Shown here: positions 5,614 to 63,545 of the stretch, one piece after another
Position numbering within the stretch: the first letter of the stretch is position 1
How the letters are laid out: each line of letters begins with the position of its first letter
Source: an uncultured Chloroflexia bacterium
GTDB lineage: Bacteria > Chloroflexota > Anaerolineae > Anaerolineales > E44-bin32
Length of the DNA: 64,000 nucleotides
Assembly (NCBI GenBank): GCA_963777165.1
Contig: CAVZPO010000021.1
Coordinates: forward strand, 140,187-204,186
Reading direction: 5' to 3'
Translations under genes and position numbers: made by a program
The notes under the pieces: model-generated
What the model saw: the letters and a program-made list of their open reading frames with translations, nothing else
What the model was told of the DNA's origin: nothing
The model's database searches: none

Positions 5614-5654
5614 ACCTACTCCAACTTTCTCCCCCCGGCCCGGTGGCCGGGGCG

Positions 5655-6356
5655 TTAGCTCTTGCGGCGCTTCTTCTTTTCCGAGAGCGTCGCCTGCAGC
5701 ATCGCCTCGGGAGACATGCCCTGCTCGAGGAGCCACTCGCGCCGGGGCTTGAGCGCCCCGCTCGGGCACACGTCGACACATTGACCACAGAAGACGCACG
5801 TAGTCTCAGGCATCGGCCGGTTGAGGAATGTCCCGATCTGTGTCGCGTGGCCGCGGCCGGTGAAGTCGAGCGCAAAGGTAAACTGCGCATCGTTGGCGCA
5901 CACCTGGACACAGCGCCAGCACAACACGCACTTGGCGTAATCGCGGATATACATCGGGTTGTCGTCGATCAGCTCCGGGCGCCGCCGCTCGCCGCCGTCG
6001 AATCTCTCCGGCCGGCAGGCGTAGGCTGTCATCAGCGCCTGAAGCTCCGGGGCTTCGGAAAGGTCGACGGAGAAGGCCAGCATTTCCAGCAGCGTGCGCC
6101 GCGCCCGCACGATCCGTTCGGACTCGGTGTGCACGCGCGCGCCGGCGCTCGCCGGCGTGACACACGACGCCACCAGCCCGCGCACGCCTTCGACTTCGAC
6201 GACGCACATCCGGCACAGGCCGTTGGCGGTCGTTCGGGGCGAATAGCACAGCACGGGGATGTTGATCCCCGCCTGTCGGGCCGCCTCCAGGAGCGTCGCC
6301 CCGGCTGCGATCTGCACCGCCCGGCCGTCGATCGTCAGCTCAATGCGATCGGTCAT
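5655..6356 (-). CDS. 2Fe-2S / 2x[4Fe-4S] ferredoxin-type electron-transfer subunit (NuoG/FdhA N-terminal module as a separate protein)
   Basis: [15 protein letters not shown]...[13 protein letters not shown] is the 2Fe-2S fold. [11 protein letters not shown] and [12 protein letters not shown] are ferredoxin motifs. Confidence 0.8.
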
Positions 6357-46834: not shown

Positions 46835-48133
46835 CTACCCCGCTGGATTGACCACCCGACCCAGGAAGAGAATCGTCCCGGTCTGACCGTCGCGGATCAG
46901 GTACAGGAACGGGCGGTCGATGGTGAAGCTGATCGGCTCGTCGGCGGGAGCCGAGGTCACCGACATGATCACGGCCGTGGCGGCGGCTGCCTCGGTGCCC
47001 TTCTCGTCCACCAGCACAAACGCCTTGTGAAGCACATCGCTGATATACAGATCCCGGGCGTCATCCATGCCGGAGAAGTCCGCCCGGTCGGGATCGAAGG
47101 CGTCCGGCATCCCCAGACCGATGAGGGCGTCATTCAGGCTGAAGCTCGATGTGTAGCTGAACTTGGGCAGGGTCAGGATCACGAGCCCGTGGGTCAGGCT
47201 TCCGGAAAGACCCTGGATCATCTCCGAGCTCAATCTCTCTTCGACAGCCTCGAACTCGCCCTCGTCGGGCAGGATAATCAGCATCGAGCTGTTTCCGTTC
47301 AAGTAGGATAGCTCGAGCGCCCGGTATCCATCCCCCATCGCATACCCGTACGACTCGGTCTGATGCATCATGGGGACGTCAAGCGTCGATCCGTCAAGAA
47401 GGTGGAAGGGCTCCGGGCCGGTGGCGCTCTCTTCGAAGGGATGAAGCCAGCCCGCCTTGAAGTAGATGGCATTGGCCAGAACCAGGCGTGTCATCGCGTC
47501 GACGGCACCTTCGGGGATCAGGTCCTGGATCTTCTTGCGGGTTTCGCTGCTCACCCAATCGTTGATCGCCCGGCGGGAGGCATCGGGGTCGGCCATGTAG
47601 TCGACCAGGCGCATGCCCGCGCCGTAGTTCTCCCCCAGCAGGTCGAGGAATTCGCCTCGGAACGGGAAGTCCCGCTGGCCCCACAACGAGTTGGCAATGC
47701 TCAGCTCGAACGGCGTCCCCTCGGTCGCCTGCGCGGCACGCGCCTCGAGGTCGAGGGCGTAGGCGTTGAAGGCGGGGTGCAGGCGCTCCGGGGGCAGGTC
47801 GAAGTGGAGAGCGGCCGCCATCTGGCTGGCGGTCTCTCCGGCGGCGCCGGCGTAGGTCATGGCGAGCGCGGTGGAGATGCTGTAAGGGGAGAAGAACAGG
47901 TTGCCTGGCGCCTGGCGCAATGCGGCGTACAAGTCCGTGGCGAAAGCGGCGTTGCCTTCGGCCAGTGCGGAGAGATCGCCCTGGTTGGCGACGGGGCCCC
48001 GATCGCGTGGTTTATCGGAGATGACCAGCGATGAACCCGGCGGGACGTTCGGCGATGTGGGGGCGCCACAGCCGGCCAAGACAGACAGGAAGAGTGCGAG
48101 AACCATCACGGACGCAAGCGGGAAGCGGTTCAT
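46835..48133 (-). CDS. serpin family serine-protease inhibitor, lipoprotein
   Basis: Signal and lipobox LSVLAGC. NLFFSPYSISTALAMTYAGAAGETASQM; hinge/RCL region GTEAAAATAVIMSVTSA; FTIDRPFLYLIRD. Confidence 0.9.
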   Translation of the reverse strand: MNRFPLASVMVLALFLSVLAGCGAPTSPNVPPGSSLVISDKPRDRGPVANQGDLSALAEGNAAFATDLYAALRQAPGNLFFSPYSISTALAMTYAGAAGETASQMAAALHFDLPPERLHPAFNAYALDLEARAAQATEGTPFELSIANSLWGQRDFPFRGEFLDLLGENYGAGMRLVDYMADPDASRRAINDWVSSETRKKIQDLIPEGAVDAMTRLVLANAIYFKAGWLHPFEESATGPEPFHLLDGSTLDVPMMHQTESYGYAMGDGYRALELSYLNGNSSMLIILPDEGEFEAVEERLSSEMIQGLSGSLTHGLVILTLPKFSYTSSFSLNDALIGLGMPDAFDPDRADFSGMDDARDLYISDVLHKAFVLVDEKGTEAAAATAVIMSVTSAPADEPISFTIDRPFLYLIRDGQTGTILFLGRVVNPAG

Positions 48134-48446: not shown

Positions 48447-49149
48447 TCAGTCTTCGTCTGCCTGGATCCTGAGTCGGTAGCCTACCCCCGGCTCAGTGAC
48501 GATGTGCGTGGGACGCGAAGCATCGGGTTCGATCTTCCGTCTCAGGTTGCTGACATTCACGCGCAGTAGGTGCGCTTCCTGTTCGTAGCCAGCGCCCCAG
48601 ACCTGCCGGAGGATCTGATGGTGGGTCAGTACCTTTCCGGCATTGGTGACGAGCGCGCGGAGGATGTCGTACTCCGTCGGCGTGAGCTGCACCTCATTCC
48701 CTGCGACGGTCACCATGCGGCGCCCCAGGTCGACCGTGAGATTGCCGGAGACGAACACCGGTGCGCTGTCTGACGGGGCCGCCCGCCGCATGCGCCACGC
48801 GCATGCGGGCGAGCAGCTCTCCGGCTCCGAATGGTTTGGTGAGGTAGTCGTCGGCGCCGGCGTCGAGGGCCTCGATCTTGTCGGCCTCTTGCCCTCGGAC
48901 CGAAAGGATGATGATCGGCACCGAGGCCCACTCGCGCACTCGGCGCGTGACCTCGCTTCCATCCATGTCCGGCAAGCCAAGGTCGAGAATGATCAGGTCC
49001 GGGCGGTGCGCAACAACTCCCGAGAGCGCTTCCGCTCCGGAAACCGCCGCAAAGACGGAATAGCCTTCCGCGGAAAGCGCCATGTGCAGGAAGCGCTGGA
49101 TGGCGGGCTCGTCGTCGACGACGAGGACCCGCAGCCCGTTCTCCGTCAT
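48447..49149 (-). pseudogene. kdpE: KdpE response regulator, +1 frame shift at about 48791
   Basis: REC domain LRVLVVDDEPAI...IILDLGLPDMDG...DDYLTKPFGAGELLARMRVA in one frame. The DNA-binding domain (RRAAPSDSAPVF..LTVDL...LTPTEYDILRALVTNAGKVLTHHQILRQVWG...GVGYRL) is in the next frame. Removing one base (t48791 on the + strand) gives RVALRR as in E. coli KdpE. The span is 703 nt. Confidence 0.85.
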
Positions 49150-51815
49150 CCGCTGGCCGCCTCACGCTCGGGGATGGCAATCGTGATCGTCGTGCCGCCA
49201 CCAGGGCGGTTTTCGGCGGCGATGAACCCTCCATGGGCCTCGACGATTCCTTTGCAGATCGACAACCCAAGGCCGCTCCCAGAGACACGACCCGGACGCT
49301 GGACGCGGTAGAACTTGTCAAACACGCGGTTGAGGTCCTCGGCGGGGATTCCAAGACCTCGGTCGGAGACCTCGATCTCCAATTGTCCCCCCGGTAGCTT
49401 CGCCTCGACGTCGATGGGCGAGTCCGGCGGAGAGTACTTGAGCGCGTTGTCGATGACGTTCACCAGAACCCGGGTCATCAACGCGAAATCCATGGGGACA
49501 AGCGGAAACTCCTCCGGTACCCGCACGTTCACACGGCGGTCCCCAAACCTCTCCTCGAGTTGGGCGAGGGCTGAGCCGATGACGTCCTGGACGTCGCTGG
49601 GTTCGAGGCGCAACCGCAGGGCACCGGCTTCGACACGCGTCATATCCAGCAGGTTTCCCACGAGCCGGTTCAGCCGCTCGGCCTCTTCCCGGGCATTCTT
49701 GATGAGCCCGCGCCGGCTGGCCTCGTCGAGTTGAGCGTCCTGGTCCTGCAGGCTGCTCAAGGCACCCGTGATGGACACCAGGGGAGTCCGCAGGTCATGC
49801 GAGATTGAGTTAAGCAATGCCGTCTGGAGCTGCTCGCCAGCCTGCAGCACCTGCGCCTGTCGCGCCTGTTCTGCCAGCTGCGCCCTCTCGATCGCGACGG
49901 CTGCCTGGCTGGCGAACGCTTCCATCAGCCGCTGTTGTTCTGGAGTCAGGTAGCCGTCGGGTTCCTCGGAGCCGCGGATCCCCAGGACGCCGAGGACACC
50001 GCGGGCGGTCTTCACCGGCAGGTAGCGCAGCTGGGCACCCGGGAGGGTGGTCGTGTTTCTCCCGGCCGGTTCGCCATGCCGCAAGACCCAATCGGCCACG
50101 GCCAATTCGTTTTCATCCAATTCCAACTCGCCGCTGCCGACGGTTGACGCCAGACGGCCATCTTCCTGGAGGAGGATCACGCCCTCCCGCCCGAAAGTGC
50201 CCTGGACGTGCCGGATGAGGGCCCGAAGGATGTCATTGAGGCCATATACCGCGGCCAGGTCGCGGCTGAGTTCGTACAGTTCGGTGGTCTGCTCCGCACG
50301 CAGGCGGGCCGCATCCGCCTGTTCGCGCGCCCGCGCGGCAAGCGTGCTGATCACGAGACCCACCAGGAACAGGCCGATGAAGGTTAGGACGTACTCGGTG
50401 TCGGTCACCGCGAAGGTGAAGCGCGGGGGCACGAAGAAGAAGTCGAATGCCAGCACGCTCAACACCGAGGCCAGGATGGAAGGGCCACGGCCAAGGAAGA
50501 CGGCAGAGATGACCACCACGACCAGGTACAGCATGACCAGGTTGACCGGCGAGAGCATCAAGGAGAATGGAACGCTGACCATTGTGGCGGCCACGACGAG
50601 AAAAGCGCTTTGCAGGTACCGGCGCCATGGGCGGTGCGGAACCCAGTCGCCAGTTTCCGCCGAGGTGGCTTGAGCCTCACCGCTGACGACGTAAACGTCG
50701 ATCGCTCCGCTTCTGCGAATCAATTGATCGACGATTTGTCCCTGCACCCAATCCTGCCAGCGCGATCGGAGCGGCTTCCCGGCGATGATCTTGGTGACAT
50801 TGTGGGCACGCGCGTAGTCCAAGGCAGTGGCGGCCACCGATTGGCCCGGGAGGGTCACGACCTGGGCGCCCAGGTCTTCTGCCAGACGCATGGTCCGAGC
50901 GACCCGCGCCTGAACCTCCTCCGGCGCCCGCCTGTCTTCCCCTGTCTCGACATGCAGGGCAGACCATTCCGCCCCGAGTTCGTCCGCCAACCGCCGCGCC
51001 GATCGAACAAGTCGCTCTCCGGCCGAACTGGTGCTGACGCACACCAGCAGCCTTTCACCCGCCGGCCAAGGCCCGGGAATGGCGCGGGTCTGCATGTAAG
51101 CGAGCATTTGCTCGTCGACGCGGCCGGCGGCGCGCCTCAGGGCCATCTCCCGCAGAGCAGTCAGATTCCCTTTGCGGAAGAAGCGCTCCACTGCCACCGC
51201 CGCCGTGTCGGGGACGTAGACTTTGCCGTCGTGCAACCGCTGGATCAGTTCGTCCGGCGGAAGGTCGACCAGTTTGATCTCCGCCGCCTCGTCCAGGAGG
51301 CTGTCCGGAATCGTCTCTCGGACGGTGATCCCGGTGATCTGGGCGACGGCGTCGTTCAGGCTCTCGAGGTGCTGGATGTTGAGCGTGGTGTAGACATCGA
51401 TCCCGGCCTCCAGCAAGTCGTGGACATCGTGGTGCCGCTTTGGGTGGCGGGACCCCGGCGCGTTAGTGTGGGCAAACTCGTCGACCAGAGCCAGTTGAGG
51501 GTGGCGGGCGAGGACCGCATCCACGTCCATTTCGGTCACGGTCGTTCGGCGATACTCCACCTGACGTCGCGGGGTGATCTCCAGCCCTTGGAGCAAAGCC
51601 TCCGTCTCCGCTCGTCCGTGAGTTTCGATAAACCCGACGACGACGTCCACGCCTTGCGCTTTGCGCTGCCGGGCCGCCTCGAGCATGGCATACGTCTTCC
51701 CGACGCCGGCCGCGTAGCCGAGAAAGATCTGCAGCTTGCCGCGTGCTTTCTCACGCTCCTCGGCTTGGACGCGGACCAACAGTTCGTCGGGGTCGGGTCT
51801 AGAAGTGACGCTCAT
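49146..51815 (-). CDS. kdpD: KdpD sensor histidine kinase (KdpD-N/Usp/DUF4118/GAF/HisKA/HATPase)
   Basis: 889 aa. GKLQIFLGYAAGVGKTYAML; DEFAHTN; TM block FDFFFVPPRFTFAV; H-box LNSISHDLRTPL; G box GSGLGLSICKG. The stop overlaps the kdpE start. Confidence 0.95.
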   Translation of the reverse strand: MSVTSRPDPDELLVRVQAEEREKARGKLQIFLGYAAGVGKTYAMLEAARQRKAQGVDVVVGFIETHGRAETEALLQGLEITPRRQVEYRRTTVTEMDVDAVLARHPQLALVDEFAHTNAPGSRHPKRHHDVHDLLEAGIDVYTTLNIQHLESLNDAVAQITGITVRETIPDSLLDEAAEIKLVDLPPDELIQRLHDGKVYVPDTAAVAVERFFRKGNLTALREMALRRAAGRVDEQMLAYMQTRAIPGPWPAGERLLVCVSTSSAGERLVRSARRLADELGAEWSALHVETGEDRRAPEEVQARVARTMRLAEDLGAQVVTLPGQSVAATALDYARAHNVTKIIAGKPLRSRWQDWVQGQIVDQLIRRSGAIDVYVVSGEAQATSAETGDWVPHRPWRRYLQSAFLVVAATMVSVPFSLMLSPVNLVMLYLVVVVISAVFLGRGPSILASVLSVLAFDFFFVPPRFTFAVTDTEYVLTFIGLFLVGLVISTLAARAREQADAARLRAEQTTELYELSRDLAAVYGLNDILRALIRHVQGTFGREGVILLQEDGRLASTVGSGELELDENELAVADWVLRHGEPAGRNTTTLPGAQLRYLPVKTARGVLGVLGIRGSEEPDGYLTPEQQRLMEAFASQAAVAIERAQLAEQARQAQVLQAGEQLQTALLNSISHDLRTPLVSITGALSSLQDQDAQLDEASRRGLIKNAREEAERLNRLVGNLLDMTRVEAGALRLRLEPSDVQDVIGSALAQLEERFGDRRVNVRVPEEFPLVPMDFALMTRVLVNVIDNALKYSPPDSPIDVEAKLPGGQLEIEVSDRGLGIPAEDLNRVFDKFYRVQRPGRVSGSGLGLSICKGIVEAHGGFIAAENRPGGGTTITIAIPEREAASG

Positions 51816-52127
51816 CGAATGGTCGAATCCATGTCGGGGTGGACGCCCTCGGTATGTGCGGAGGGATTGTCTCTATTCTATCTCTCGCTGACCGCCGGTG
51901 CTTCGGGCGCGATCTTGCACGCCGCGCCCGAAGGCCCGAAAGGACCGGCCCACCCCTCACGGGGGAATGCGTTTGTCGTAGGTTACACAACGTGAGCTCG
52001 GTATTGAACGGGCGGATCCCAGGCAAGATTACGTCCGGGTTCATGGGCTGGCCGAGAGTACCTTCGCGCGCGAGTGGTCACTCGCCGCGGGGACCCGGCC
52101 GGCTTCCGTACCTGAGGCGCTCGGCAG

Positions 52128-52719
52128 CTACAGATGCCCATCCAGCGCCAGGTTCAACTCGAGCACGTTGACCCGCGGCTCGCCCAGGATCCAGAGCTGG
52201 CGGCCTTGTGTGGAGCGATCCACAAGTTGCCGGACTTGATCCTCGGAGAGACCGCGCTCGCGAGCGACCCGCGGCAGCTGATAGAGTGCCGCGGCAACGC
52301 TGATGTGCGGATCAAGCCCGCTTCCGGAAGCCGTGACGAGATCCACCGGGATCGGGGAGCTATTTCCGGGGTCGGCTGCCTCCAAGGCGTCGATCCGCGC
52401 CTGTGCGGCAGCGACCAGGGCCGGGTTGAGCGGACCATAGTTAGAGCCGGAGGAGGCGGTGAGGTTCTCCGCGTTGAAGGCGTTGTACGGGAACGTGCCG
52501 GTCGCCGAGAGACGGCCCCAGAAGTACTTGGGATCTTCGAACGATTGTCCGATGAGCTCGGAGCCAACGGCCTGTCCATTGCTGAGAATCAAGCTGCCGT
52601 TGGCCTGGTGAGGGAAGACCAAGCTGTGCCACCCCGGTCACGACCAGCGGGTAGATTCCGCCGGTCAGGACCGTCAGGACAAGCAGCAGAAGGAAACCGG
52701 TCTTCAGTTGACTGATCAT
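52128..52719 (-). pseudogene. kdpC: K+-transporting ATPase subunit KdpC, +1 frame shift at about 52619-52622
   Basis: N-terminal [35 protein letters not shown] in one frame. The continuation [11 protein letters not shown]...ELIGQSF...[14 protein letters not shown]...LELNLALD is in the next frame. The span is 592 nt. Confidence 0.85.
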
Positions 52720-52726
52720 GGCATGC

Positions 52727-53506
52727 CTACTTTTCGGAGATAGCGGTCAACGTGGTCGCCCGAAGTTCGAGCTCGGTGGCATAGGCCCGCTCAAGGGACG
52801 TTGCCGCCAAGGCGGCCAGATCCCCCAGCAGACGGCTGTCCGGCGATGGAAGCCAGCCATGGCCTTGCCAGATGTGGATCTCTCCAATCAAGCCGGGAGC
52901 GGCCTCGATGGGGACGACTCGATCCGGCGGCTTGTCAATCGTCACGCCGGCAGGCGCCCTGACCACCGCCGGGATGGAACCGGTTTCGGCCTGCAGCGTG
53001 ACCTCGACCAGCGCGGCATAGAACGTCTGCTGGAGGCGCCGGGCCAGGGTGTGAAGGACGGACTGGCGCGTGCGCAGGCCGGCCAGGGCCAGGCTGAGTT
53101 CGTACATCAGCTTGGCGTCGCGCTCGCTGATGCGCGCCTTCGAGAGTGCATCTTGCATCCGTCCCACGACCAGGATGGCCACGCCCAGGAAGATCGTCAG
53201 GACCAGCCAGCCCTCCAGCTGACCAACGGCAAAGGTGAAGAAGGGAGGGATGAAGAAGAAGTTGAAGACCAACGTGGCCGTCACCGCGGCGCACATGCCC
53301 GGGAGCTGGCCCCAACGGCTCGAGCTCCACACGACGGCCGCCAGATACAGCAGGGCGATGACCGCTTCCCCGAGTGTCCGGCGGCCGAGCAAGAACATGG
53401 GGACGGTCAGGAAGAGCACCAGTACCGTGGCCATGGCACTCTGGTAGACAAGTTCGGCGGGCAGGTTGAGGCGAAGTCTCTTCATCACAGGTTCCTTTCG
53501 GATCAA
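52727..53506 (-). CDS. stand-alone DUF4118 + GAF-like protein (KdpD sensor-core paralog with no KdpD-N, Usp or kinase domains)
   Basis: TM block VTATLVFNFFFIPPFFTFAVGQLEGWL parallels KdpD FDFFFVPPRFTFAVTDTEYVL. It is followed by a coiled linker (ERDAKLMYELSLALAG vs TTELYELSRDLAA) and a GAF-like domain. The protein ends without an H-box. Confidence 0.7.
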   Translation of the reverse strand: MIRKEPVMKRLRLNLPAELVYQSAMATVLVLFLTVPMFLLGRRTLGEAVIALLYLAAVVWSSSRWGQLPGMCAAVTATLVFNFFFIPPFFTFAVGQLEGWLVLTIFLGVAILVVGRMQDALSKARISERDAKLMYELSLALAGLRTRQSVLHTLARRLQQTFYAALVEVTLQAETGSIPAVVRAPAGVTIDKPPDRVVPIEAAPGLIGEIHIWQGHGWLPSPDSRLLGDLAALAATSLERAYATELELRATTLTAISEK

Positions 53507-53525
53507 TGGGTATCTTGCCCTTGGA

Positions 53526-55643
53526 TCAGGTCAACCGCAGCGCGACGAGCAGGAGGTCGATGAGCTTGATCCCGATGAACGGTGCGATGACACCGCCGAC
53601 TCCGTAGATCAGCAAGTTGTCGCGCAGGATCCGCGCCGCCCCCAGCGGCCGATAGGGCACACCGCGCAGGGCCAGGGGAACCAGGGCGATGATGATCAGA
53701 GCGTTGAAGATCACTGCCGAGAGGATGGCGCTTTGCGGGGTCGCCAGCCGCATGAAGTTCAGCGCCGTCAGCACCGGATAGGTGGAGGCGAAGGCGGCCG
53801 GGATGATGGCGAAGTACTTCGCCACGTCGTTGGCAATGCTGAACGTCGTCAGGGCGCCGCGGGTCATCAGCAGCTGCTTGCCGATCTCCACGATCTCGAT
53901 CAGCTTGGTGGGGTTGCTGTCCAGATCTACCATGTTGGCCGCTTCGCGCGCCGGCTGGGTGCCGGTGTTCATGGCCACGGCGACATCGGCCTGCGCCAGG
54001 GCCGGTGCGTCATTCGTGCCGTCGCCGGTCATGGCGACCAGGCGACCGCCGGCCTGATGCTCGCGGATCAGCTTGAGCTTGGCCTCCGGCGTGGCCTGCG
54101 CCAGGAAATCGTCCACCCCGGCTTCGGCGGCGATGGCGGCGGCGGTCAGCGGGTTGTCACCCGTGATCATCACGGTCTTAATGCCCATCTTGCGCAAGTG
54201 CGCGAACCGCTCTTTGATTCCGCCCTTGACGATATCCTTCAAGTGGATCACGCCCAGCGCCTGTCCGTTGCGCGCCACCACCAAAGGTGTGCCCCCGCTG
54301 CGGGCGATCGTATCTACCGCGACCTGCAATTCCGGCGGGGTGTGGTTCCCCTGGCTGCGGATCAGCGTCTGCATCGTATCCGGGGCGCCCTTGCGGATCG
54401 TGGTCCCATCCGGCAGGTCCACGCCGCTCATCCGCGTTTGTGCGGTAAACGGGACGAAGTGCATCTCGGCCGAGCGTGCCTCGGCGGCAGCCCCCAGGGG
54501 TCCGGTGCCCACGGAGCGGGCGCGCAAGCCGTACTTCTCCTTCGCCAGGACCACGATGCTTCGTCCCTCCGGTGTCTCGTCGGCCAGGGAAGCCAGCTGG
54601 GCAGCTTCGGCCAGCGTCTCCGGCGGGGTCATCCCCACCGGAACGAACTCCACCGCCTGCCGGTTGCCGAGCGTGATCGTGCCGGTCTTGTCCAGCAGCA
54701 GCACGTCGACGTCCCCGGCCGCCTCCACCGCGCGGCCGGACATGGCGATGACGTTGCGCTGGATCATGCGGTCCATCCCGGCAATGCCGATGGCCGAGAG
54801 CAGGCCGCCGATGGTCGTGGGGATCAGGCACACCAGCAGAGCGACCAGCACGGTAATGGTGATCGGGATCCCCATGCCAGCGGCCCGCACGCTGAACAGC
54901 GAGTAGGGCAGCAGCGTGGAGCACACGACAAGGAAGATGACCGTGAAGCCGGCCAGCAGGATGTTCAGGGCGATCTCGTTCGGCGTCTTCTGCCGCTTGG
55001 CGCCCTCCACCAGGCTGATCATGCGGTCCAGGAACCCCTCCCCGGGGTCGGCCGTGACGCGGATGATGAGCCAGTCCGAGAGCACGCGCGTGCCGCCCGT
55101 GACGGCGCTGCGATCGCCGCCCGCTTCACGGATCACAGGGGCGCTCTCTCCGGTGACGGCGCTTTCGTCGACGGAGGCAATGCCCTCGACGATCTCACCG
55201 TCGGCCGGGATGATGTCGTTGACCTCGACCAGGAACGCATCGTCCTTGCGCAGCCCGATGGAGGAAACCAGCTCCACCTCGGCGTCGCGGCGCGGGGCGC
55301 GCAGCTTCTTGGCCCTGGTCTCCTTGCGCGTCTTGCGCAGCGCCTCGGCCTGGGCTTTGCCGCGCCCCTCGGCCACCGCCTCGGCGAAGTTGGCGAACAG
55401 GACGGTGAACCACAGCCACAGCGCCACCGCCCCGATGAACCCGACCGGTGCCTCGCCGCGTCCGGCAAGGGCCTGGATCCAGAGAGCGGTCGTGAGCACG
55501 CTGCCGACCTCGACGACGAACATCACCGGGTTGCGGACTTCCAGGCGCGGGTCGAGCTTGCGGAAGGAGTCCCAGATGGCACGCTGGTAGAGCTGTCGGC
55601 GGTAAGATGGTTGTTTCTTGAGTTGCATCGTATGTGTTGTCAT
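53526..55643 (-). CDS. kdpB: K+-transporting P-type ATPase subunit KdpB
   Basis: 705 aa; [10 protein letters not shown] phosphorylation site; TGDNPLTA; [21 protein letters not shown]. Confidence 0.95.
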
Positions 55644-55647
55644 GGCC

Positions 55648-57391
55648 CTAATGCCCCAACATCAGATGTTCCACGAAGGGTCCGAGCGACAGCGCCGGGA
55701 TGAAGCTCAGCGCGCCGACAATGATGATGACGCCGATCAGCCAGGCAATGAACAGCGGCGTGTGCGTGGAAAGCGTTCCGGCCCCTGCCGGCACCTTCTT
55801 CTTGCGCACCAGCGATCCGGCGATCGCCAGGGCCGGGATGGCCAGCCAGTATCGAGCAAGGAACATGGCGACCCCCAAGGAGGTGTTGTAGAAAGGCGTG
55901 TTCACGCCGATCCCGGCAAAGGCACTTCCATTGTTGTTGGATGCCGACGAGAAGGCATAGAGGACCTCGCTGAACCCGTGCGCTCCGGGATTGAAGATCG
56001 TCTCCTGCCCGGCAGGGACGGCTACCGCCGCTGCCGTTCCGATCACCACGAGAACGATCGGGATCAGGATCATCAGCGACGCCATCTTCATCTCAAAGGC
56101 CTCGATCTTCTTTCCCAGGTACTCCGGCGTGCGGCCGACCATCAGCCCGGCGACAAACACTGCCACGATGACGAAGGCCAGCATGCCGTACAGCCCGGAC
56201 CCCACCCCTCCGTAGATGATCTCGCCCAACTGCATCATGAACAGCGGAACGAACCCACCCAGCGGCATGAACGAGTCGTGCATCGAGTTGACCGACCCGT
56301 TGGAGGCGGCGGTCGTGGCCGTGGCCCACAGGGCCGAGTTGGCGATGCCGAAGCGCGCCTCCTTGCCTTCCATGTTGCCGCCAGGCTGCAGGGTACTTGC
56401 CTGCTGATCGACGCCCAGCGCGGCGAAGGCCGGGTTGCCGCTCTGCTCGGCCCACACGGCGATCCCCAGCATCACCACAAAGATGGCCGTCATCGCCGCC
56501 AGCAGTGCCCAGCCCTGGCGCGTGTCACCGACCATCTTGCCGAAGGTGTAGACCAGCGCCGCCGGGATCAGCAGGATCGACAGCATCTCCAGGAAGTTGG
56601 AGAACGGTGTCGGGTTCTCGAACGGGTGGGAGGAGTTCACATTGAAGAAGCCCCCACCATTGGTCCCCAGCTGCTTGATGGCGACTTGCGATGCCGCGGG
56701 GCCGACGGCCAGCACCTGCTGCGCCACGGCCCCGCCGTTCGAATCGGTTGTCGGCTGCAGCAGGTTCACGGTCTCATAGGTGCCGAAGGTCTGCACCACG
56801 CCTTGCGAAACCAGCAGGACCGCCAGGACGAACGCAAGCGGGAGCAGGATGTAGAGCGTGGTCCGCACCATGTCCACCCAGAAGTTGCCGATGGTCTTCG
56901 AGGAGTGCCGGGCGATGCCGCGGATCAACGCCACCATCGCCGCCATCCCGGTGGCGGCGGAGACGAAGTTCTGTACCGTCAGGGCAAACATCTGGGTCAG
57001 GTAGCTCATCGTCACTTCGCCGCCGTAGCCCTTGCCAGTTGGTGTTGGTGGCGAAGCTGACGGCCGTGTTCCAGGACGAGTCGGGCGTGACGGCCCCGAG
57101 GGCCTGCGGATTGAGCGGCAGGAATGCCTGCAGCCGCTGCAGGGCATACACCGCCAGCAGCCCCAGGACGTTGAAGACCATGAAGGCGATGGCGTAGGTT
57201 CTCCACCCCATCTCTTCATTGGAGCGCACGCCCGTAATCCGATACACCAACCGTTCCACCGGGCCAACGACTGCATCAAGGAACGTCCGCTCCCCCTGGT
57301 AGACACGGGCCATGAAAGTCCCCAGCGGCTTGGCCAGAAGCAGGAGCACGACAATGTAGAGAACGAGTTGAAACCAGCTTGCCGCGTTCAT
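55648..57391 (-). pseudogene. kdpA: K+-transporting ATPase subunit KdpA, +1 frame shift in a C-run at 57029-57031
   Basis: The N-terminus through [16 protein letters not shown] is in one frame. [27 protein letters not shown]...[19 protein letters not shown]...NNNGSAFAG continues in the next frame. Removing one G from CAAGGGCTAC restores NWQGYGGE. ATG 57391 overlaps the kdpF stop. The span is 1744 nt. Confidence 0.9.
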
Positions 57392-57480
57392 CCGAACCAC
57401 TCCGGCTTGAGCATGGCGAAGACCAGGTAGACGAGCAGCGCCAACGAGATCAGTCCGGCTGCAAGGTAGAGGACGCTCAT
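57388..57480 (-). CDS. kdpF: K+-transporting ATPase subunit KdpF
   Basis: 30 aa, MSVLYLAAGLISLALLVYLVFAMLKPEWFG: a single TM peptide directly coupled (ATGA) to kdpA. Confidence 0.7.
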   Translation of the reverse strand: MSVLYLAAGLISLALLVYLVFAMLKPEWFG

Positions 57481-57575
57481 GGGTTTGTCTCCATCAGCCG
57501 GTCGCAGACGACGATCAACCCCCACGAGAGGGCGAACAGGACCAATGTGAAGCCAATGTACGCAAGATCCATCAT
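57477..57575 (-). CDS. candidate 32-aa single-TM micro-protein upstream of kdpF
   Basis: GAAGGAG 7 nt upstream of ATGATG. MMDLAYIGFTLVLFALSWGLIVVCDRLMETNP. Its TGA overlaps the kdpF ATG (ATGA). Confidence 0.35.
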   Translation of the reverse strand: MMDLAYIGFTLVLFALSWGLIVVCDRLMETNP

Positions 57576-58263
57576 GGGCCGGCTCCTTCACGATCGCATC
57601 ATTGGGCGACAAAGCCCAGTCTATCGAGGGCGATGGCAAAGTAGGGACAAAGACTCCTCATTTCGGGTCAAGGACTTGTCAAGATACCGTGGACGTGAGT
57701 TCTTCCCGGGGTGAGAGGGAGGCAGTGGAGCAGCGAGCAGGCCTGGCGGGACTCCTCCCTATGGTCAAGTTCATGTTCACAACACACCTGGCATAAGGAA
57801 CTCATGCTGCAAGCTGCACAATTCGGAGCCAAGGGATCAAGTTGTACCGTCCCTGCGACGCGCCGTGGATGAGAAGGGCTCCATTGCCTGAGCCTGTGAC
57901 GGCACCGCGCAGGCCCGTCAGCGAGCCCGCTCCACGATCCGCCTTCGCCTGGATACGCCGTCGGCCGTCCTACAGGAGGCTATAGGACATACTTTGGGGT
58001 TTGGATGTGCTTCGCGACGGCGATGAGGCAGCCTACCGCGCATCGGGCTTGAGTTCGAACTGCTCCACTTCCAAGAGGAGACAATCGATTCTACTTCGTC
58101 CATGACGGGCAGCTCTATGAACTCACCCTCCTTCACACTGGCAAGGAGGACCGGGGCGTGCACAATCGCTTCCTGGACAGCTTTGCTTTTCAGAAGCAGC
58201 GGCGCGTTCGCGCCATCCGTTGCCCTAAGCCACGCTGCCCGCCCTTCGCACGCCGGCAGCGCC

Positions 58264-58683
58264 TTATCCGGGTCGACGCCAGGCGAGGACAAACGCGAGG
58301 AGGAGCAGCGCAAGCCCCGCGCCGTCAAAGACGATGAAGCGCAGCGCCGTAGACGAAAGCGCGGCATGCCCGGCCGAAAGCGAGGCGAGGATCCAGCTCT
58401 CACCAACCAGGCCGATCATCTGCTGGGCCAGGATCACTCCGAACAGCCCTGCGTGACGAGCAGGATGTGCAACGACCGGCACGTAGGCCGCACACCACAT
58501 CAGGAACAGGATGCCGATCGCACGCACCATCGCCGCCCCGGCTGCACCGGTCAGTTCGAAGGCAGCCGCGTATCGATCCGGGTGGAGCACATAGGGGATT
58601 GCGGCGCTCAGGTTCGAGATCAGGACAAGCCCGACTGCAACGCGCGCCGCCCACACGCGCCCGGGTTCGGGCTGCGAGTTCAT
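58264..58683 (-). CDS. hypothetical 4-TM membrane protein
   Basis: 139 aa with four hydrophobic segments. Last gene of the minus-strand cytochrome operon. No family recognised. Confidence 0.45.
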   Translation of the reverse strand: MNSQPEPGRVWAARVAVGLVLISNLSAAIPYVLHPDRYAAAFELTGAAGAAMVRAIGILFLMWCAAYVPVVAHPARHAGLFGVILAQQMIGLVGESWILASLSAGHAALSSTALRFIVFDGAGLALLLLAFVLAWRRPG

Positions 58684-58768
58684 GCTTGCCCCCCGGCGCC
58701 GTCACCTGCGGCTTCCCGTTCCCGGGTGACGCTTGGGATGGCGCGGACCTCCGGGCTCGAGGCAACCT

Positions 58769-59275
58769 TCATCCGCGATCCTTCCATGCCGGGCGCGGCA
58801 GCCAGCGCGGGACGCGTTTCAAGTAGTCGTCGTACGCACCGCCCAGCCGTCGACGCGTCGCCGGCTCTTCCACCCGCACCAGGAACACGTGCATGGCGGG
58901 CAGGAAGGCCAGGGCGATTGCCAGCAGCGTCGCCGAGCCCCGCCACATCGAGAGCCCGAGCAGCAGCGCGAACGCCCCGAGGTAGATCGGATTGCGCACG
59001 TGACGGTAGGGTCCCTGGGCCACGAGAGTCGTCGGAGGGTCCCCGAAGCCGCCGGTCGAGCGTGCGATGAGCAAGAGCGTCGCTTCCGCCCAGCCGATGA
59101 GCGCCAAACCGAAAGTCATGGCAGCCAACCCCGGCAGCCTCAGCCCGCCAGGCAAGCCGAGGCCGAGCCGCGCATCGATCTTCCAGGCGAACAGGACGAC
59201 GGCAACCACCATGGTTGAGGCCGTCGCCAGGATCATCCCACGGGCCGGGTGCGATCGCGGAGGGGTCTGAGCCAT
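58769..59275 (-). CDS. isoprenylcysteine carboxyl / phospholipid methyltransferase family (ICMT/PEMT-like) membrane protein
   Basis: LVAQGPYRHVRNPIYLGAFALLLGLSMW....EEP.TRRRLGGAYDDYLKRVPRW is the family signature. Confidence 0.75.
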   Translation of the reverse strand: MAQTPPRSHPARGMILATASTMVVAVVLFAWKIDARLGLGLPGGLRLPGLAAMTFGLALIGWAEATLLLIARSTGGFGDPPTTLVAQGPYRHVRNPIYLGAFALLLGLSMWRGSATLLAIALAFLPAMHVFLVRVEEPATRRRLGGAYDDYLKRVPRWLPRPAWKDRG

Positions 59276-59314
59276 GTTCGGCGGTGTCGAACGCGCGGCC
59301 GAGGGCCGGCCGCG

Positions 59315-60226
59315 TTACTTCGCCGCCTCCTCCGGCCCGAGCAGGACGAACAGCCCGAGCGAACCCATGTTGGCAAATAGCAGCGGCGCCAGGAACGGCG
59401 CGCCGCGGATGAAACGCTCGCCGACGAAGACCCCCGCGGCGGTCAGGTCGTCGATCACGTGCAGCACCGCGCCGACGACGCCTACGGCGATCATCAACAC
59501 CATTGCCCCGGCGAAGATCGCCAGATCCGCCCGTCGGCGCCGCTCGGTCATCCCCATTCCGGCAGCGACGACCGTCCCGAACACCCCGGCGGCGGTTGGC
59601 AGCCACAGCCACGGGTTGACGAACCCGGTCCGCGCGTGATCGAGCACGCTGCTGATGACCGTCGCCAGGCTGCCCATGCCGACCATGAAGAAGTACGCCT
59701 GCGATTTGCTGTAGGGCAGCGCCAGCCTCCGGCGGCCGGTCAGGCTCAGTACGCCGCTATCGGGTGGATCTTCCACCCACGCGGCGCTGATGCCAAGCAG
59801 CCCGGTTAGCGAAAACGTCAAAGGACCGAGGATCGGGGGCGCCCACACCAGCAGATCGACCGAGACCTGCTCACCCGGCACCGCCTGGGGCAGCAAGGCG
59901 CGGCGCAGGTGGAAGTAGGCGCCCATCAGACCAACGACGATGCTGGCCCCCAGGACGACGGTGGCAATCGACGATGCCAGCGGCCGCCGGCGCAAGGCGA
60001 TCAGCCCGGCGATCAGCAGCAGGCCCCCGGCGACCGGGCCGAAGATGATCGGGATCCATTCGTAAGAGCGAATCGTCCCGCTGATGTTGTGCGCCAGGTA
60101 GGTATCGATTCCGAGGAACACTTCATTGACCGCTGCCATCAGCAGCATCATCTGGTCGCGCGTCAGCGGCAACCACCGACGCCTCAGCCCATCGAGTGGC
60201 AGGGAGAGCTCCGCCAGCAGCGTCAT
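59315..60226 (-). CDS. 8-TM membrane protein with internal duplication and four conserved His (candidate di-heme b / quinol-interacting partner)
   Basis: ATG 60226 overlaps the cytochrome stop (ATGA). Half 1 reads ..YLAHNISG..YEWIPIIFGPVAG...ALRRRP...GLMGAYFHLRRAL...APPILGPLTF. Half 2 reads ..VLDHARTG..WLWLPTAAGVFG...TERRRR...GVVGAVLHVIDDL...APFLAPLLF. Confidence 0.55.
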   Translation of the reverse strand: MTLLAELSLPLDGLRRRWLPLTRDQMMLLMAAVNEVFLGIDTYLAHNISGTIRSYEWIPIIFGPVAGGLLLIAGLIALRRRPLASSIATVVLGASIVVGLMGAYFHLRRALLPQAVPGEQVSVDLLVWAPPILGPLTFSLTGLLGISAAWVEDPPDSGVLSLTGRRRLALPYSKSQAYFFMVGMGSLATVISSVLDHARTGFVNPWLWLPTAAGVFGTVVAAGMGMTERRRRADLAIFAGAMVLMIAVGVVGAVLHVIDDLTAAGVFVGERFIRGAPFLAPLLFANMGSLGLFVLLGPEEAAK

Positions 60227-61518
60227 GGCGCCGAGCCCGCCGCGGCCGCCTCCAACTTGGCCGCCGCCATCTCCTTGAGATCGGACAGGTCTTGGAGCAG
60301 CTCGTAGATGCCGTGCCACTGGGTGTAGTCCGGTCCCTGCATCCACACGCCGAACTTGGCCGTCCGGCCCCAGTAGTGCCAGACGTCGAAGTACTTGAAG
60401 TCGATCGGCTCGTCGAACGGCTCGACCGTCAGCAGCCCCTGCTGCTTGAGCGGCTCCATGACGGCGTCGCTCTCACGCACGCGCTCGTTCACTGCCTCGG
60501 TGGCGGCATCCGCCGCAGCGTAGAAGTCCGCCAGGAAGGTCTCGTTGTGGCACTCGCGGCATACGGCCTGCATGCGCGTCAGGTTGTCCTGCCAGGAGGG
60601 CCGGCGTTGGCTGAGCGGCGAAAACAGGTACCACGTCAGTCGGTCACCCACATCGTGCGTCGTCCCCGCGGCGCCGAATCCGCTCAGATGGCACGTGGCG
60701 CACGTCGGCGCCGGGAAGTCCTGGACGGTCAGCGTGCCGGGTTCGGCCTCCCAGTTCCAGCGGTCGCCGCCGGTGGCATAGGCGATGCCGTGCGGCGACT
60801 CCTGGTAGATCTCCCACTGGGGGTGATCCGGGCCGATGTGGCAGGCGTTGCACGTCTCCGGCTTGCGCGCCTGTTCCAGGCTGAACTCGTGGCGCAGGTG
60901 GCACTTCTGGCACTCGCCGACCGAGCCGTCCGCCGCCGGGCGACCGATGTCGTGACAGGTCTCGCAGGCGAAACGGGTGAGATCCTGTCCCTCGATGGCA
61001 TACAGCGCGTGGCGGCTCTTGTCGGGCGCGAACGAACCCTCCGGGACCGCCTGGTAAGCCGCACGCTGTGTTTCGGTCAGCGGTTCGATACCGACCACCG
61101 CCACATACGCGGGTAGGGAGTGGCGGCTGGCGTTGTACTGCGCCACCTCCGGCCCATGGCAGCGTTGACACATGGCCGTGCTGGGTGAGCCGAGGATGAT
61201 GGACCCTTCGTGTTCGACGGCGCCGGCGTAGCCGCTGCTCACCTCGTGGCAGTCACGACACGTCACCTTGGCGGCGGCCATCGTGCTGCCGCCGTACTGT
61301 TCCACGATGCCCGGTGTTGCCTGGCGATGGCAAGCGACGCATTCGTCCGCGCTCCCGGCAAGCGCATTGGGGCGCCCCTCAACCGCAGCGGCCGAGGTGG
61401 TGGCGCCTACCACTGCCTGGGCGATCAGAATCACACCCAGGGTGATGATCACCGCTACCAGCCCGACAATCAGCAAACGCGCAGAGCGCAGACGGCCTCC
61501 GGTATCCGACTGTGCCAT
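60223..61518 (-). CDS. membrane-anchored octaheme c-type cytochrome, hydroxylamine-oxidoreductase (HAO)-like
   Basis: GGAGGGTGGG precedes ATG 61518. N-terminal TM anchor. Eight CxxCH motifs: CVACH, CRDCH, CQRCH, CETCH, CQKCH, CNACH, CATCH, CRECH. C-terminal helical region with FDVWHYWGRTAKFGVWMQGPDYTQWHG. Confidence 0.8.
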   Translation of the reverse strand: MAQSDTGGRLRSARLLIVGLVAVIITLGVILIAQAVVGATTSAAAVEGRPNALAGSADECVACHRQATPGIVEQYGGSTMAAAKVTCRDCHEVSSGYAGAVEHEGSIILGSPSTAMCQRCHGPEVAQYNASRHSLPAYVAVVGIEPLTETQRAAYQAVPEGSFAPDKSRHALYAIEGQDLTRFACETCHDIGRPAADGSVGECQKCHLRHEFSLEQARKPETCNACHIGPDHPQWEIYQESPHGIAYATGGDRWNWEAEPGTLTVQDFPAPTCATCHLSGFGAAGTTHDVGDRLTWYLFSPLSQRRPSWQDNLTRMQAVCRECHNETFLADFYAAADAATEAVNERVRESDAVMEPLKQQGLLTVEPFDEPIDFKYFDVWHYWGRTAKFGVWMQGPDYTQWHGIYELLQDLSDLKEMAAAKLEAAAAGSAP

Positions 61519-61616
61519 CCCACCCTCCGTGGTTCCAAAGTCCCTGCCAAGGGTCAAGGATCCATGTCTTATATAGCACAATCGTTCAGCGGAGCACAAT
61601 AACCTGCGTCAGTCCC

Positions 61617-62053
61617 TCAGCCCAAGAACCGGTCCTCCCAGCCTGGCACCCAGAGCAGGCAGGTCGAGCGCCGACCGAACCAGCGCCGTCGCCGGCTGGC
61701 GATCAGCGCGTAGGCCGCGTCGCGTAGCGGACGGGGGACAAGCCACAGTCCTGCCAACGCCGGCCAGGGGAGCGGAAGCAGGCGGCAGATCCGCAGCACG
61801 GCATCCGATCGGCTCCAGCAGCGAGCTCCTTCGACGAGCACCACCGTCGAATAGCTCGCCGTATTGTGCAGTCCGCCCCCGCCAGCAGTCGGCGTCCGGC
61901 GTCGGATTGCAGGGCGGCGAATTGGAAGCGCCCGCGGCGATCGCGCGGCAGGATGAAGGCGACCACCGAGGCGCACAGGTTGCACTCGCCGTCGTACAGG
62001 ATGACCAAACTGCCTTCGTCGATGGCGGAGCTGAGCGGCGGCATCGGCCGCAT
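61617..62053 (-). pseudogene. DCC1-like thiol-disulfide oxidoreductase (DUF393), -1 frame shift near 61873-61883
   Basis: LVILYDGECNLCASVVAFILPRDRRGRFQFAALQSDAGRRLLAG in one frame. GGGLHNTASYSTVVLVEGARCWSRSDAVLRI...VPRPLRDAAYALIASRRRRWFGR is in another. The junction lies in the ccgcccccgcc run. The span is 437 nt. Confidence 0.75.
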
Positions 62054-62201
62054 TACGTCTGCGTGTTTGGAGACAGCCGATGGAATGGCGCCGGGTCTGC
62101 GGCCGGATAGCTCCACACGAGACAGGAATGTTGACTCGCGTGGCACAGGGGCTCGCGCGGCTCGGCGCCATCCATCCAGGCGCTGGAGGGGTGCTCCCGC
62201 A

Positions 62202-63545
62202 TCACTCGTACTTGAGTGCGTCGACGGGGGAGAGCGTGGCGGCGCGCAGTGCGGGGTACAACCCGGAGAGCAGGCCGATCAGCGTGGCGAAGATCAACGC
62301 CGCGATCGGCAGCCAGAGGGGCGTGAAGACGGCGACGGAGGGAGGCGGCGCACCTCCGGACTGGGCCGCCTGCCCTGCCAGGTAGGCCAACGCCACGACG
62401 TTGATCGCCTGCCCGCCCGCCCACCCGAGCAGCGTGCCTCCCAGCCCGCCCAGGAAGCCGATGCCGGAGGCTTCGCCGAGAAACACGCCCAGCACGTCGC
62501 GGTTCGTCGCCCCGACGGCCTTCATCAATCCGATCTCGCGCGTCCGCTCCAGGATCGCCATCGCCATCGTGTTGGCGATCCCGATCGCCGCCACCAGCAG
62601 CGCGATGGCGCCCAATCCGCCGAAGACGACCTGCAGGACGAGGAAGAAGCTGCTGATGCCCTGAATGTAGGACATGGGCGAGAAGGCCTGGTACCCCAGG
62701 GCCGTGATCGTCTCGGACAGATCGGAGACGACCGACACGTCCTCGGCTTTGACCATCGCCAGCTGGTAGCCGTCGCGATTGCGGTCGATCCGCCGGCCCA
62801 TCGCCCACTGGTTGAAACCGGTCACTTCGTCCAGCGGCATGAAGATCGACCAGTCGGGTTCGTCGCGCGTCTCGGCCAGCACGCCGACCACGCGAACCTG
62901 GAGGGACTTGCGGACTTCCTCGCCCTCGCTGGTCCACTTGATCAGCGTCAGCTTGATCGTCTGCCCGAGCAGGTCCGGCGGCTCAGGGATCGTCTGTCCC
63001 GGGCGTGGCCGCGGGTAGTAGAAGCTCTGCGGGACCATCGCCCCAATCACGATCGTCCCCTTGGCCAGGGTCCGTTCGCCGCCCTGGAGAGGAATGTCGA
63101 GCGCCTCCAGGTAGTCCGGAGGAACGCCCAGCACCCCGGTGCGCGCCTCCAGCTGCCCGCTGCTGAAGACGCTCTCGAGGTTCAGGTAGTCGCGCGGGAA
63201 GACCGCCTGGACCCCTTCCAATGCCGCCAGGTCCTTGAGCGTCTGAGGCGTGATCAGTGAAACCTGCGACGGCCCGGTCGCATTGACCGCGACCGCGTAC
63301 CCGCCGCCCCCGCCGCCCCCACCGCCGTAGAACTCCCCGCCGTATTGCGGCGAGACCTGGATCAGAGTCAGATCGCTGATGCCGCCAAGCTGCTCGGTGG
63401 CATTGCGCTGCAGGCCGATGCCCAAAGACACCAGCACGACGACCGCCGCCGTGCCGATCACGACACCAATCGCCGTCAGGGCGACGCGCGCCTTGCGCCG
63501 CCCCAGGTTATCCGCGATCAGCCGCAGCAGATCGATCAGCCGCAT
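62202..63545 (-). CDS. ABC transporter permease, FtsX/MacB type
   Basis: N-terminal TM (RKARVALTAIGVVIGTAAVV), a large extracytoplasmic domain containing a 9-Gly run, and a C-terminal FtsX 3-TM bundle (REIGLMKAVGATNRDVL). Confidence 0.8.
   Translation of the reverse strand: MRLIDLLRLIADNLGRRKARVALTAIGVVIGTAAVVVLVSLGIGLQRNATEQLGGISDLTLIQVSPQYGGEFYGGGGGGGGGYAVAVNATGPSQVSLITPQTLKDLAALEGVQAVFPRDYLNLESVFSSGQLEARTGVLGVPPDYLEALDIPLQGGERTLAKGTIVIGAMVPQSFYYPRPRPGQTIPEPPDLLGQTIKLTLIKWTSEGEEVRKSLQVRVVGVLAETRDEPDWSIFMPLDEVTGFNQWAMGRRIDRNRDGYQLAMVKAEDVSVVSDLSETITALGYQAFSPMSYIQGISSFFLVLQVVFGGLGAIALLVAAIGIANTMAMAILERTREIGLMKAVGATNRDVLGVFLGEASGIGFLGGLGGTLLGWAGGQAINVVALAYLAGQAAQSGGAPPPSVAVFTPLWLPIAALIFATLIGLLSGLYPALRAATLSPVDALKYE

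Follow-up and report, generated by a model that had tools for sequence, protein, structure and literature searches.

The epsilonproteobacterial octaheme cytochrome Hao has a NapC/NrfH-type tetraheme cytochrome as its partner, and the subunits of NrfHA form a complex that oxidises quinol non-electrogenically on the outer side of the membrane. HAO-family proteins outside the nitrifier/anammox clade are found in dozens of phyla and have been called proteins of unknown function (PMC9213671). Those HAOs without the P460 Tyr cross-link that have been characterised so far are reductive (PMC8042395); among them, epsilonproteobacterial Hao, which belongs to a reverse hydroxylamine:ubiquinone redox module (reverse-HURM), and Kuenenia HAOr (Kustc0458/0457) take nitrite to ammonium or NO (PMC8042395, PMC9213671), the partner of HAOr being the diheme Kustc0457 (PMC8042395). 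IhOCC of Ignicoccus hospitalis, also without the cross-link, is described as an octaheme nitrite reductase (PMC9250108). Here we analyse a two-gene operon in a 64 kb stretch of DNA from an uncultured Chloroflexia bacterium (contig CAVZPO010000021.1; hereafter the window), which encodes an HAO-family octaheme cytochrome c and an eight-helix membrane protein with four histidines. The pair is a real, widespread and undescribed module, in which the cytochrome is a new member of a known family and the four-His membrane protein represents an undescribed one. With a probability of roughly 0.55, we read the operon as a membrane-bound reductase module at the outer face of the cytoplasmic membrane, with the four-His protein delivering the electrons.

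An earlier reading of the window, made from the sequence only, had described the first protein as a 431 aa HAO-like cytochrome with exactly eight CxxCH motifs. The motif count is correct (residues 60, 87, 117, 185, 203, 223, 273 and 320), there are no CxxxCH, CxxxxCH or CxxCK variants in the 431 aa protein, and the Pfam family PF13447 (HAO family) matches with 110.5 bits against a cut-off of 21.9. The PDB matches are 4qo5 (IhOCC, the best at E 1e-31), 1fgj (NeHAO), 6hif, 4n4j, 6t5e and 6h5l, which after IhOCC comprise Nitrosomonas HAO, Kuenenia HDH and HOX, and HAO-like proteins. Alignment to 1fgj showed cytochrome motifs 4 to 8 to be collinear with NeHAO residues 193–411; the motif aligned with motif 4 is presumably that of the catalytic heme 4 of NeHAO, although the alignment itself gives no heme numbers. 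The last 114 residues match IhOCC alone among PDB chains, up to the IhOCC C-terminus (E 5e-5). In the oxidative HAO/HDH (P460) enzymes, a Tyr near the C-terminus (Tyr467 in NeHAO) is bonded to the catalytic heme of the adjacent subunit. Since IhOCC has no P460 Tyr cross-link (PMC9250108), such a cross-link is unlikely here, and the cytochrome probably lacks it, as judged from the extent of this match. The ‘HAO-like’ label, correct as to family, therefore needs narrowing: the protein resembles the reductive, IhOCC-like type of HAO-family octaheme. Public labels for its homologues conflict, ranging from ‘nitrate reductase’ (NCBI) and ‘hydroxylamine dehydrogenase’ (JGI) to ‘multiheme c-type cytochrome’.

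Among distal-pocket residues, the Asp-His pair D231-H232, just past heme motif 6 in sequence and beside the putative catalytic heme, matches that of NeHAO (VDH), where IhOCC has D-V. It is invariant in 23 homologues and was found in every one of the 83 partner cytochromes for which over 400 residues were called, and all 82 complete partner cytochromes have eight CxxCH motifs. Retention of this HAO-type pair, missing in IhOCC, would favour a module that runs oxidatively, like the nitrifier hydroxylamine:ubiquinone redox module (HURM), in which electrons taken by the octaheme from hydroxylamine or some other reduced compound would pass through the four-His protein to quinone; multiheme wires are, in principle, reversible. 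We nevertheless judge this direction very unlikely, given the C-terminal region that aligns with IhOCC alone and a score far under the cut-off of the NCBIfam hydrazine-dehydrogenase equivalog (95 versus 900 bits, with model positions 118–414 of 564 covered). The hosts, moreover, are heterotrophic Anaerolineae and sulfate-reducing Desulfosporosinus rather than nitrifiers, and Crp/Fnr regulators often adjoin the pair.

The cytochrome had also been credited with an N-terminal transmembrane (TM) anchor. A hydrophobic N-terminal helix is indeed present, and it could be either an uncleaved anchor or a long signal peptide. An AQA motif sits after the helix; because an AxA site is not conserved in the consensus of the homologues, the uncleaved anchor is favoured. 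An AlphaFold2 (AF2) model of the cytochrome, built from a shallow alignment, was unusable and was set aside (predicted local distance difference test score (pLDDT) 48.9, with a helix at residues 7–48).

The partner has four His residues in all (46, 106, 197 and 256) and no Cys. Its AF2 model, from a divergent alignment, has a pLDDT of 87.7 and a predicted template modelling score (pTM) of 0.85, and bears out the earlier estimate of about eight TM segments: there are eight long TM helices and two additional short ones that follow TM3 and TM7, and the central loop contains a hairpin. The internal duplication is real, because alignment of the N-half and C-half profiles with hhalign gave a probability of 99.8% and an E-value of 7e-28. 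His46 falls over His197 and His106 over His256, in agreement with the claim that the halves align and keep two His each. The four His are among only 13 invariant columns in 28 full-length representatives (24–59% identical to the query), and each is kept in at least 98% of the approximately 240 relatives covered. Also conserved are glycines at −4 and −7 from His106 and His256 (G99, G102, G249 and G252), D41 (always D or E), E56-W-I-P59, D196, W208 and two (A)PxxAPL motifs. Glycine on the His-bearing face of a helix is the classic signature of a porphyrin packed on that helix, as in cytochrome b.

In the model, the His residues lie 1–4 residues before the C-terminal ends of TM1, TM3, TM5 and TM7; since these four helices run parallel, all four His are at one membrane face. 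Lys plus Arg amounts to about 8.0 for the N-terminus, loops 2-3, 4-5 and 6-7 and the C-terminus, against 3.5 for the remaining loops. The topology is thus probably N-in/C-in, which would put the His on the outer face, on the side of the cytochrome. This geometry bears on the earlier proposal of a di-heme-b-type quinol dehydrogenase, which stands in part. The four His are invariant, as it required, but a classical transmembrane di-heme b does not fit because all of them are on one face, and no known cytochrome b is related. The model suggests instead that a single cofactor in each four-helix bundle, on the outer side, is the better fit.

The family to which this protein belongs is large, with at least 2413 relatives among 8000 candidates scored and 428 representatives at the 50% identity level, many of them fragments. 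Nearly all are nameless or ‘hypothetical protein’ in databases. Misleading names for the pair were seen in P0138, P0140, P0160, P0170, P0205 and P0041, one membrane partner being mislabelled ‘nitrate reductase NapE component’. The window protein has no Pfam or NCBIfam match, 28 divergent members scanned at E up to 10 returned scattered noise and no cytochrome b family, and the family profile found nothing among PDB sequences at E up to 10. Candidate families were examined in turn. Homology to cytochrome b is unsupported by Pfam, NCBIfam, PDB sequences and Foldseek. The transmembrane di-heme b proteins (bc1 cytochrome b, NarI, FdnI, Ni_hydr_CYTB and b561) gave no profile match, and the His are not split between faces. 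For the heme A synthase CtaA/Cox15 there was no PF02628 match even at E 10, no PDB sequence match and no place among the best 50 Foldseek matches. Membership of NapC/NrfH/CymA is rejected, as the partner is devoid of Cys and is not a single-TM protein with four CxxCH motifs. We found no description of the four-His protein, or of its pairing with an octaheme, within the searchable literature, so the statement that the module is undescribed has held up.

Four His at one surface could also make a single or paired metal site. The membrane protein might on this basis be a dedicated anchor or scaffold, perhaps with non-heme Fe, Cu or Zn on the four His, that holds the cytochrome at the monoderm membrane while electrons arrive from ACIII, a bc complex or a soluble carrier. 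It is unlike known quinol-oxidising proteins, which would suit such a role. The hydrophobic N-terminus of the cytochrome can be argued either way, and it may itself anchor the protein. We think this explanation unlikely: identity of about 70% across Anaerolineae, invariant Gly-x-x-Gly-x-x-x-His helices and conserved membrane-embedded acidic residues are not needed for mere anchoring, and the pairing of the family with a monoheme cytochrome c in two loci (L004 and L100, described below) fits electron transfer better.

To follow the pair across genomes, one genome per GTDB species was scanned, yielding 197 genomes with a relative; locus counts out of 80 refer to the best 80 of these 197. The 80 are almost all Chloroflexota (Anaerolineae, Ardenticatenia, Caldilineae, Promineifilaceae, Aggregatilinea and Thermoflexus), and the closest relative among the matches listed comes from a ‘Chloroflexia’ metagenome-assembled genome (MAG), at 97% identity. 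A cytochrome orthologue lies directly upstream on the same strand in 78/80 loci, the contigs of the other two ending at the membrane gene. An estimated 2 nt separate the genes in 47/90 loci, the other gaps being mostly 1, 3 or −4 nt, and sequence identity to the window pair is correlated between the two proteins (r = 0.94). The pair was also found in nine further contexts of divergent subfamilies, down to 24–38% identity. It is present in the isolate Desulfosporosinus sp. OT and in a Desulfosporosinus MAG (Bacillota; approx. 30% and 44% identity), in 5/6 metagenome contigs of the Desulfosporosinus-type subfamily, and in the subfamilies represented by P0316, P0345, P0266, P0337 and P0251. In P0266, the four-His gene is preceded by two tandem PF13447 cytochromes of 425 and 463 aa (L091:2627-6219). 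The pair is thus syntenic across phyla, and co-inheritance of its genes spans Chloroflexota, Desulfosporosinus and other lineages.

There is no conserved third gene beside the pair in the 80 loci. Recurrent neighbours are Crp/Fnr regulators (20/80, also in L001 and L101), a small cupin (24/80) and ferredoxin (8/80); ccm genes occur in 3–4 of the 80, and nirK in one, as well as in L001. The Crp/Fnr neighbours, together with the occasional nirK or heme-copper oxidase-like genes, point to anaerobic or N-oxide use. In L001 (Anaerolineae; L001:3702-13648), a Crp/Fnr regulator comes first, followed in order by ferredoxin, the copper nitrite reductase NirK (split into two gene calls), cupin, HAO-like cytochrome, four-His protein, ccmE, ccmF, Rce1-like protein (PF02517) and ccmH. 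In Desulfosporosinus sp. OT (L087:8229-11109), the pair is followed by a 336 aa unknown protein and a small c-type cytochrome; the next gene encodes a 462 aa heme-copper oxidase subunit I-like protein, weakly CcoN-like, which may be a divergent NO-reductase-like enzyme.

In another setting the four-His gene accompanies nitrous oxide reductase. The order in L004 (L004:7691-14299) is membrane-anchored monoheme cytochrome c, four-His protein, nosZ (clade II), NosB, nosD, nosF and nosY. In this locus the four-His domain of P0334 reads on into the N-terminus of clade II NosZ, with neither a stop nor an in-frame start at the junction. A ‘Rosetta-stone’ fusion was considered and rejected: P0334 is the sole such protein among the hits, and we take the arrangement as adjacency because the junction follows a seven-G run, nosZ is frameshifted and the four-His gene has a normal stop in L100. 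There (L100:506-1829) the four-His gene, which ends in a stop of its own, is immediately preceded by the gene for the same monoheme cytochrome c; nosZ is absent and the open reading frames (ORFs) after the pair look NosY-like by eye (putative). P0334 also raised the question of whether the family is NosB, a protein of approximately 190–200 aa with LNHYIGM and YGH motifs (PMC9697520). It is not: four-His proteins lack the LNHYIGM and YGH(N) motifs, and true NosB motifs (LNILNHYIGM and YQYGH) are found in a separate 202 aa gene of L004, downstream of nosZ. The related clade II nos cluster of Desulfosporosinus sp. PR (L094:5001-11881) runs nosZ-nosB-nosDFY-YtkA, with a cytochrome c and a Rieske-domain gene downstream, and contains no four-His gene.

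In every context with readable upstream DNA, then, the upstream neighbour is a c-type cytochrome, nearly always the octaheme and beside nos a monoheme. No other comparative observation argues as strongly for electron exchange between the four-His protein and c-type hemes. A position always directly 3′ of a c-type cytochrome gene might equally be expected of a dedicated maturation or heme-handling factor for that cytochrome, analogous to CcsA/ResC or NrfE, with the external His holding heme; the outward-facing His and the ccm genes that follow the pair in a few loci agree with such a role. We regard it as the least probable explanation considered here. Every heme site being a canonical CxxCH, a special lyase would be superfluous; the protein has neither a WWD/Trp-rich motif nor a match to Pfam Cytochrom_C_asm, and the tight 1 : 1 translational coupling suggests a stoichiometric subunit.

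Under the reading we prefer, a membrane-bound reductase module, it is plausible but unproven that the four-His protein is a quinol dehydrogenase with predicted heme b and quinol oxidation, and that the pair is a quinol:multiheme-cytochrome reductase whose membrane subunit is of an unrelated family. Each four-helix bundle would sandwich one cofactor, most likely heme b, between the two His of its first and third helices near the outer surface. Menaquinol would be oxidised by the four-His protein near the outer face, with Asp41, Glu56 and Asp196 as possible proton acceptors and protons leaving via conserved acidic residues. The electrons would go directly to the hemes of the anchored cytochrome, so that the four-His protein would stand in for the NrfH/NapC-type tetrahemes absent from the window, and a small N-oxide (nitrite, NO or hydroxylamine, for example) would be reduced by the cytochrome. 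Such a step, expected to be non-electrogenic, may serve respiration or detoxification.

Several points weigh against this picture. Sequence searches linked the membrane protein to none of the cytochrome b, NrfD or CtaA families, Foldseek gave no structural similarity, and His residues on one face at the very ends of helices are unusual for classical membrane b-cytochromes. The topology was assigned by the positive-inside rule alone. Neighbourhood support for an N-oxide substrate is weak, with the single nirK among the 80 loci and nothing relevant flanking the window pair, and activity on sulfur compounds has been proposed as well for HAO-family proteins that fall outside the nitrifier/anammox clade (PMC9213671). 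For the nos-associated variant, the evidence comes from two short or error-prone contigs. More tentatively still, and at somewhat less than even odds, the four-His protein may found an unrecognised family of minimal quinol:cytochrome c oxidoreductases with two cofactors (heme b or another metal), one per bundle. Such a family would replace NrfH/NapC and bc-type complexes in monoderm-type Chloroflexota and Desulfosporosinus, wiring menaquinone to HAO-like N-oxide reductases and, via a monoheme cytochrome c, to clade II N2O reductase.

The pair lies on the minus strand of the window, and its features are listed in table 1 in window numbering. The cytochrome starts with the ATG at 61518. The overlap of its stop codon with the start codon of the 303 aa protein, reported earlier, is present in the sequence and couples the two genes translationally. 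Both products are 100% identical to database proteins, the cytochrome to P0121 and the membrane protein to P0001. Among all ORFs of the 64 kb window, none besides the octaheme has more than one CxxCH motif; it follows that there is no NapC/NrfH-like or c554-like gene in the window, as the sequence-only reading had said. A promoter and terminator scan of positions 58600–62300 gave no signal above shuffled controls.

Table 1. Features of the octaheme cytochrome and four-His membrane protein gene pair (window positions).
Feature	Position	Strand	Basis or remark
Shine-Dalgarno GGAGG	61524..61528	(-)	5 nt 5′ of cytochrome ATG; sequence reading
Octaheme HAO-family cytochrome c, 431 aa, IhOCC-like	60223..61518	(-)	PF13447 E 1.2e-31, 110.5 bits; 4qo5 E 1e-31; 1fgj E 2e-26
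N-terminal hydrophobic helix, residues 15-33	61420..61476	(-)	hydropathy 3.18
Heme motif 1, CVACH	61327..61341	(-)	
Heme motif 2, CRDCH	61246..61260	(-)	
Heme motif 3, CQRCH	61156..61170	(-)	
Heme motif 4, CETCH, putative active-site heme	60952..60966	(-)	alignment to 1fgj
Heme motif 5, CQKCH	60898..60912	(-)	
Heme motif 6, CNACH	60838..60852	(-)	
Asp231-His232	60823..60828	(-)	aligned with NeHAO D-H (VDH)
Heme motif 7, CATCH	60688..60702	(-)	
Heme motif 8, CRECH	60547..60561	(-)	
ATGA stop/start overlap	60223..60226	(-)	TGA 60223-60225, next ATG 60224-60226; sequence reading
Eight-TM four-His membrane protein, 303 aa	59315..60226	(-)	without Pfam/NCBIfam match; AF2 pLDDT 87.7
Repeat 1, residues 20-152, TM1-TM4, His46 + His106	59771..60169	(-)	hhalign N-half versus C-half
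His46 codon, end of TM1	60089..60091	(-)	invariant; 243/244 relatives
His106 codon, end of TM3, GxxGxxFH	59909..59911	(-)	invariant; 235/239 relatives
Repeat 2, residues 168-300, TM5-TM8, His197 + His256	59327..59725	(-)	hhalign N-half versus C-half
His197 codon, end of TM5, DH motif	59636..59638	(-)	invariant; 232/232 relatives
His256 codon, end of TM7, GxxGxxxH	59459..59461	(-)	invariant; 241/244 relatives

On the same strand, the downstream neighbour of the pair is a PEMT/ICMT-like membrane methyltransferase (58769-59275 (-), 39 nt away) and the upstream neighbour a DCC1-like thiol-disulfide oxidoreductase (61703-62146 (-)); neither recurs beside the pair in other genomes. Just downstream of this neighbourhood is a Kdp potassium-uptake locus (49146-57639 (-)), in which KdpD (49146-51815) is confirmed by Pfam and the ORFs at 53526-57639 are putatively KdpB, KdpA and KdpF, as read from translations alone. 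A full-length bacterial serpin is encoded at 46835-48133 (-) (Pfam Serpin, E 1e-114). The molybdopterin oxidoreductase at 3454-5799 (-) scores 774 bits against the NCBIfam formate dehydrogenase alpha equivalog (cut-off 666) and is not a nitrate reductase.

Wastewater sludge, sediments and soils all count Anaerolineae and their relatives among their most abundant bacteria. The hosts are abundant in engineered and natural nitrogen-cycling habitats, and nitrogen-cycle inventories of Anaerolineae have been scored with nrfAH, nirK, nor and nosZ only (PMC10746286). If our reading is correct, the module would be a new entry from the quinone pool to N-oxide reduction that annotation pipelines have missed, and, should the cofactor prediction also hold, the four-His protein would represent a new architecture for membrane redox proteins. 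The strictly conserved membrane partner provides a concrete handle for expressing and assaying these octahemes.

Of the described systems, IhOCC (Igni_0955, PDB 4QO5) is the best solved relative of the window cytochrome, an octaheme of the HAO clade. It differs in length (521 aa, against 431 aa here), in the D-V that replaces D-H and in its archaeal origin, and no four-His membrane partner has been reported for it; the closest relatives of the cytochrome have no known dedicated redox partner. Epsilonproteobacterial Hao and Kuenenia HAOr are likewise HAO-family octahemes, but their partners are c-type cytochromes, whereas the partner here has eight TM helices and no CxxCH motif. The nitrifier HAO-c554-cM552 relay (HURM) with HaoB shares a catalytic subunit of the HAO family and a link to the quinone pool, which is proposed here; unlike the window module, it is oxidative, has the P460 cross-link and passes electrons through soluble c554 and the membrane tetraheme cM552, none of which is encoded in the window.

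The proposed arrangement is closest in logic to the menaquinol:nitrite oxidoreductase NrfHA, in which a small membrane quinol dehydrogenase is encoded beside an extracytoplasmic multiheme N-oxide reductase. NrfH, however, is a single-TM tetraheme cytochrome c that is not homologous to the four-His protein, and NrfA is a pentaheme with a CxxCK motif. If the reading holds, the pair would be a functional analogue of NrfHA or of the NapC/epsilon-Hao modules with an unrelated membrane subunit. For the architecture of that subunit, the nearest comparison is CtaA/Cox15, a protein of about 300 aa whose eight TM helices form two homologous four-helix bundles, with heme inside a bundle. Each bundle of CtaA/Cox15 contributes two of its four conserved His, on alternate helices, with all four located towards the outer side. 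The likeness to CtaA, for which homology is unsupported here, extends to the spacing of the His (approx. 60/123/216/278 versus 46/106/197/256 in the window protein). The His-bearing helices of the window protein, however, are 1, 3, 5 and 7, against 2, 4, 6 and 8 in CtaA/Cox15; the window protein has no loop cysteines, and its genomic context is a reductase, not oxidase biogenesis. Finally, clade II nos clusters include NosB, Rieske/cytochrome bc and NosGH, membrane proteins thought to aid electron delivery (PMC9697520). As in the NosB and NosGH modules, a membrane protein is here encoded beside a predicted extracytoplasmic N-oxide reductase, and in L004 a four-His member is itself found in such a cluster.

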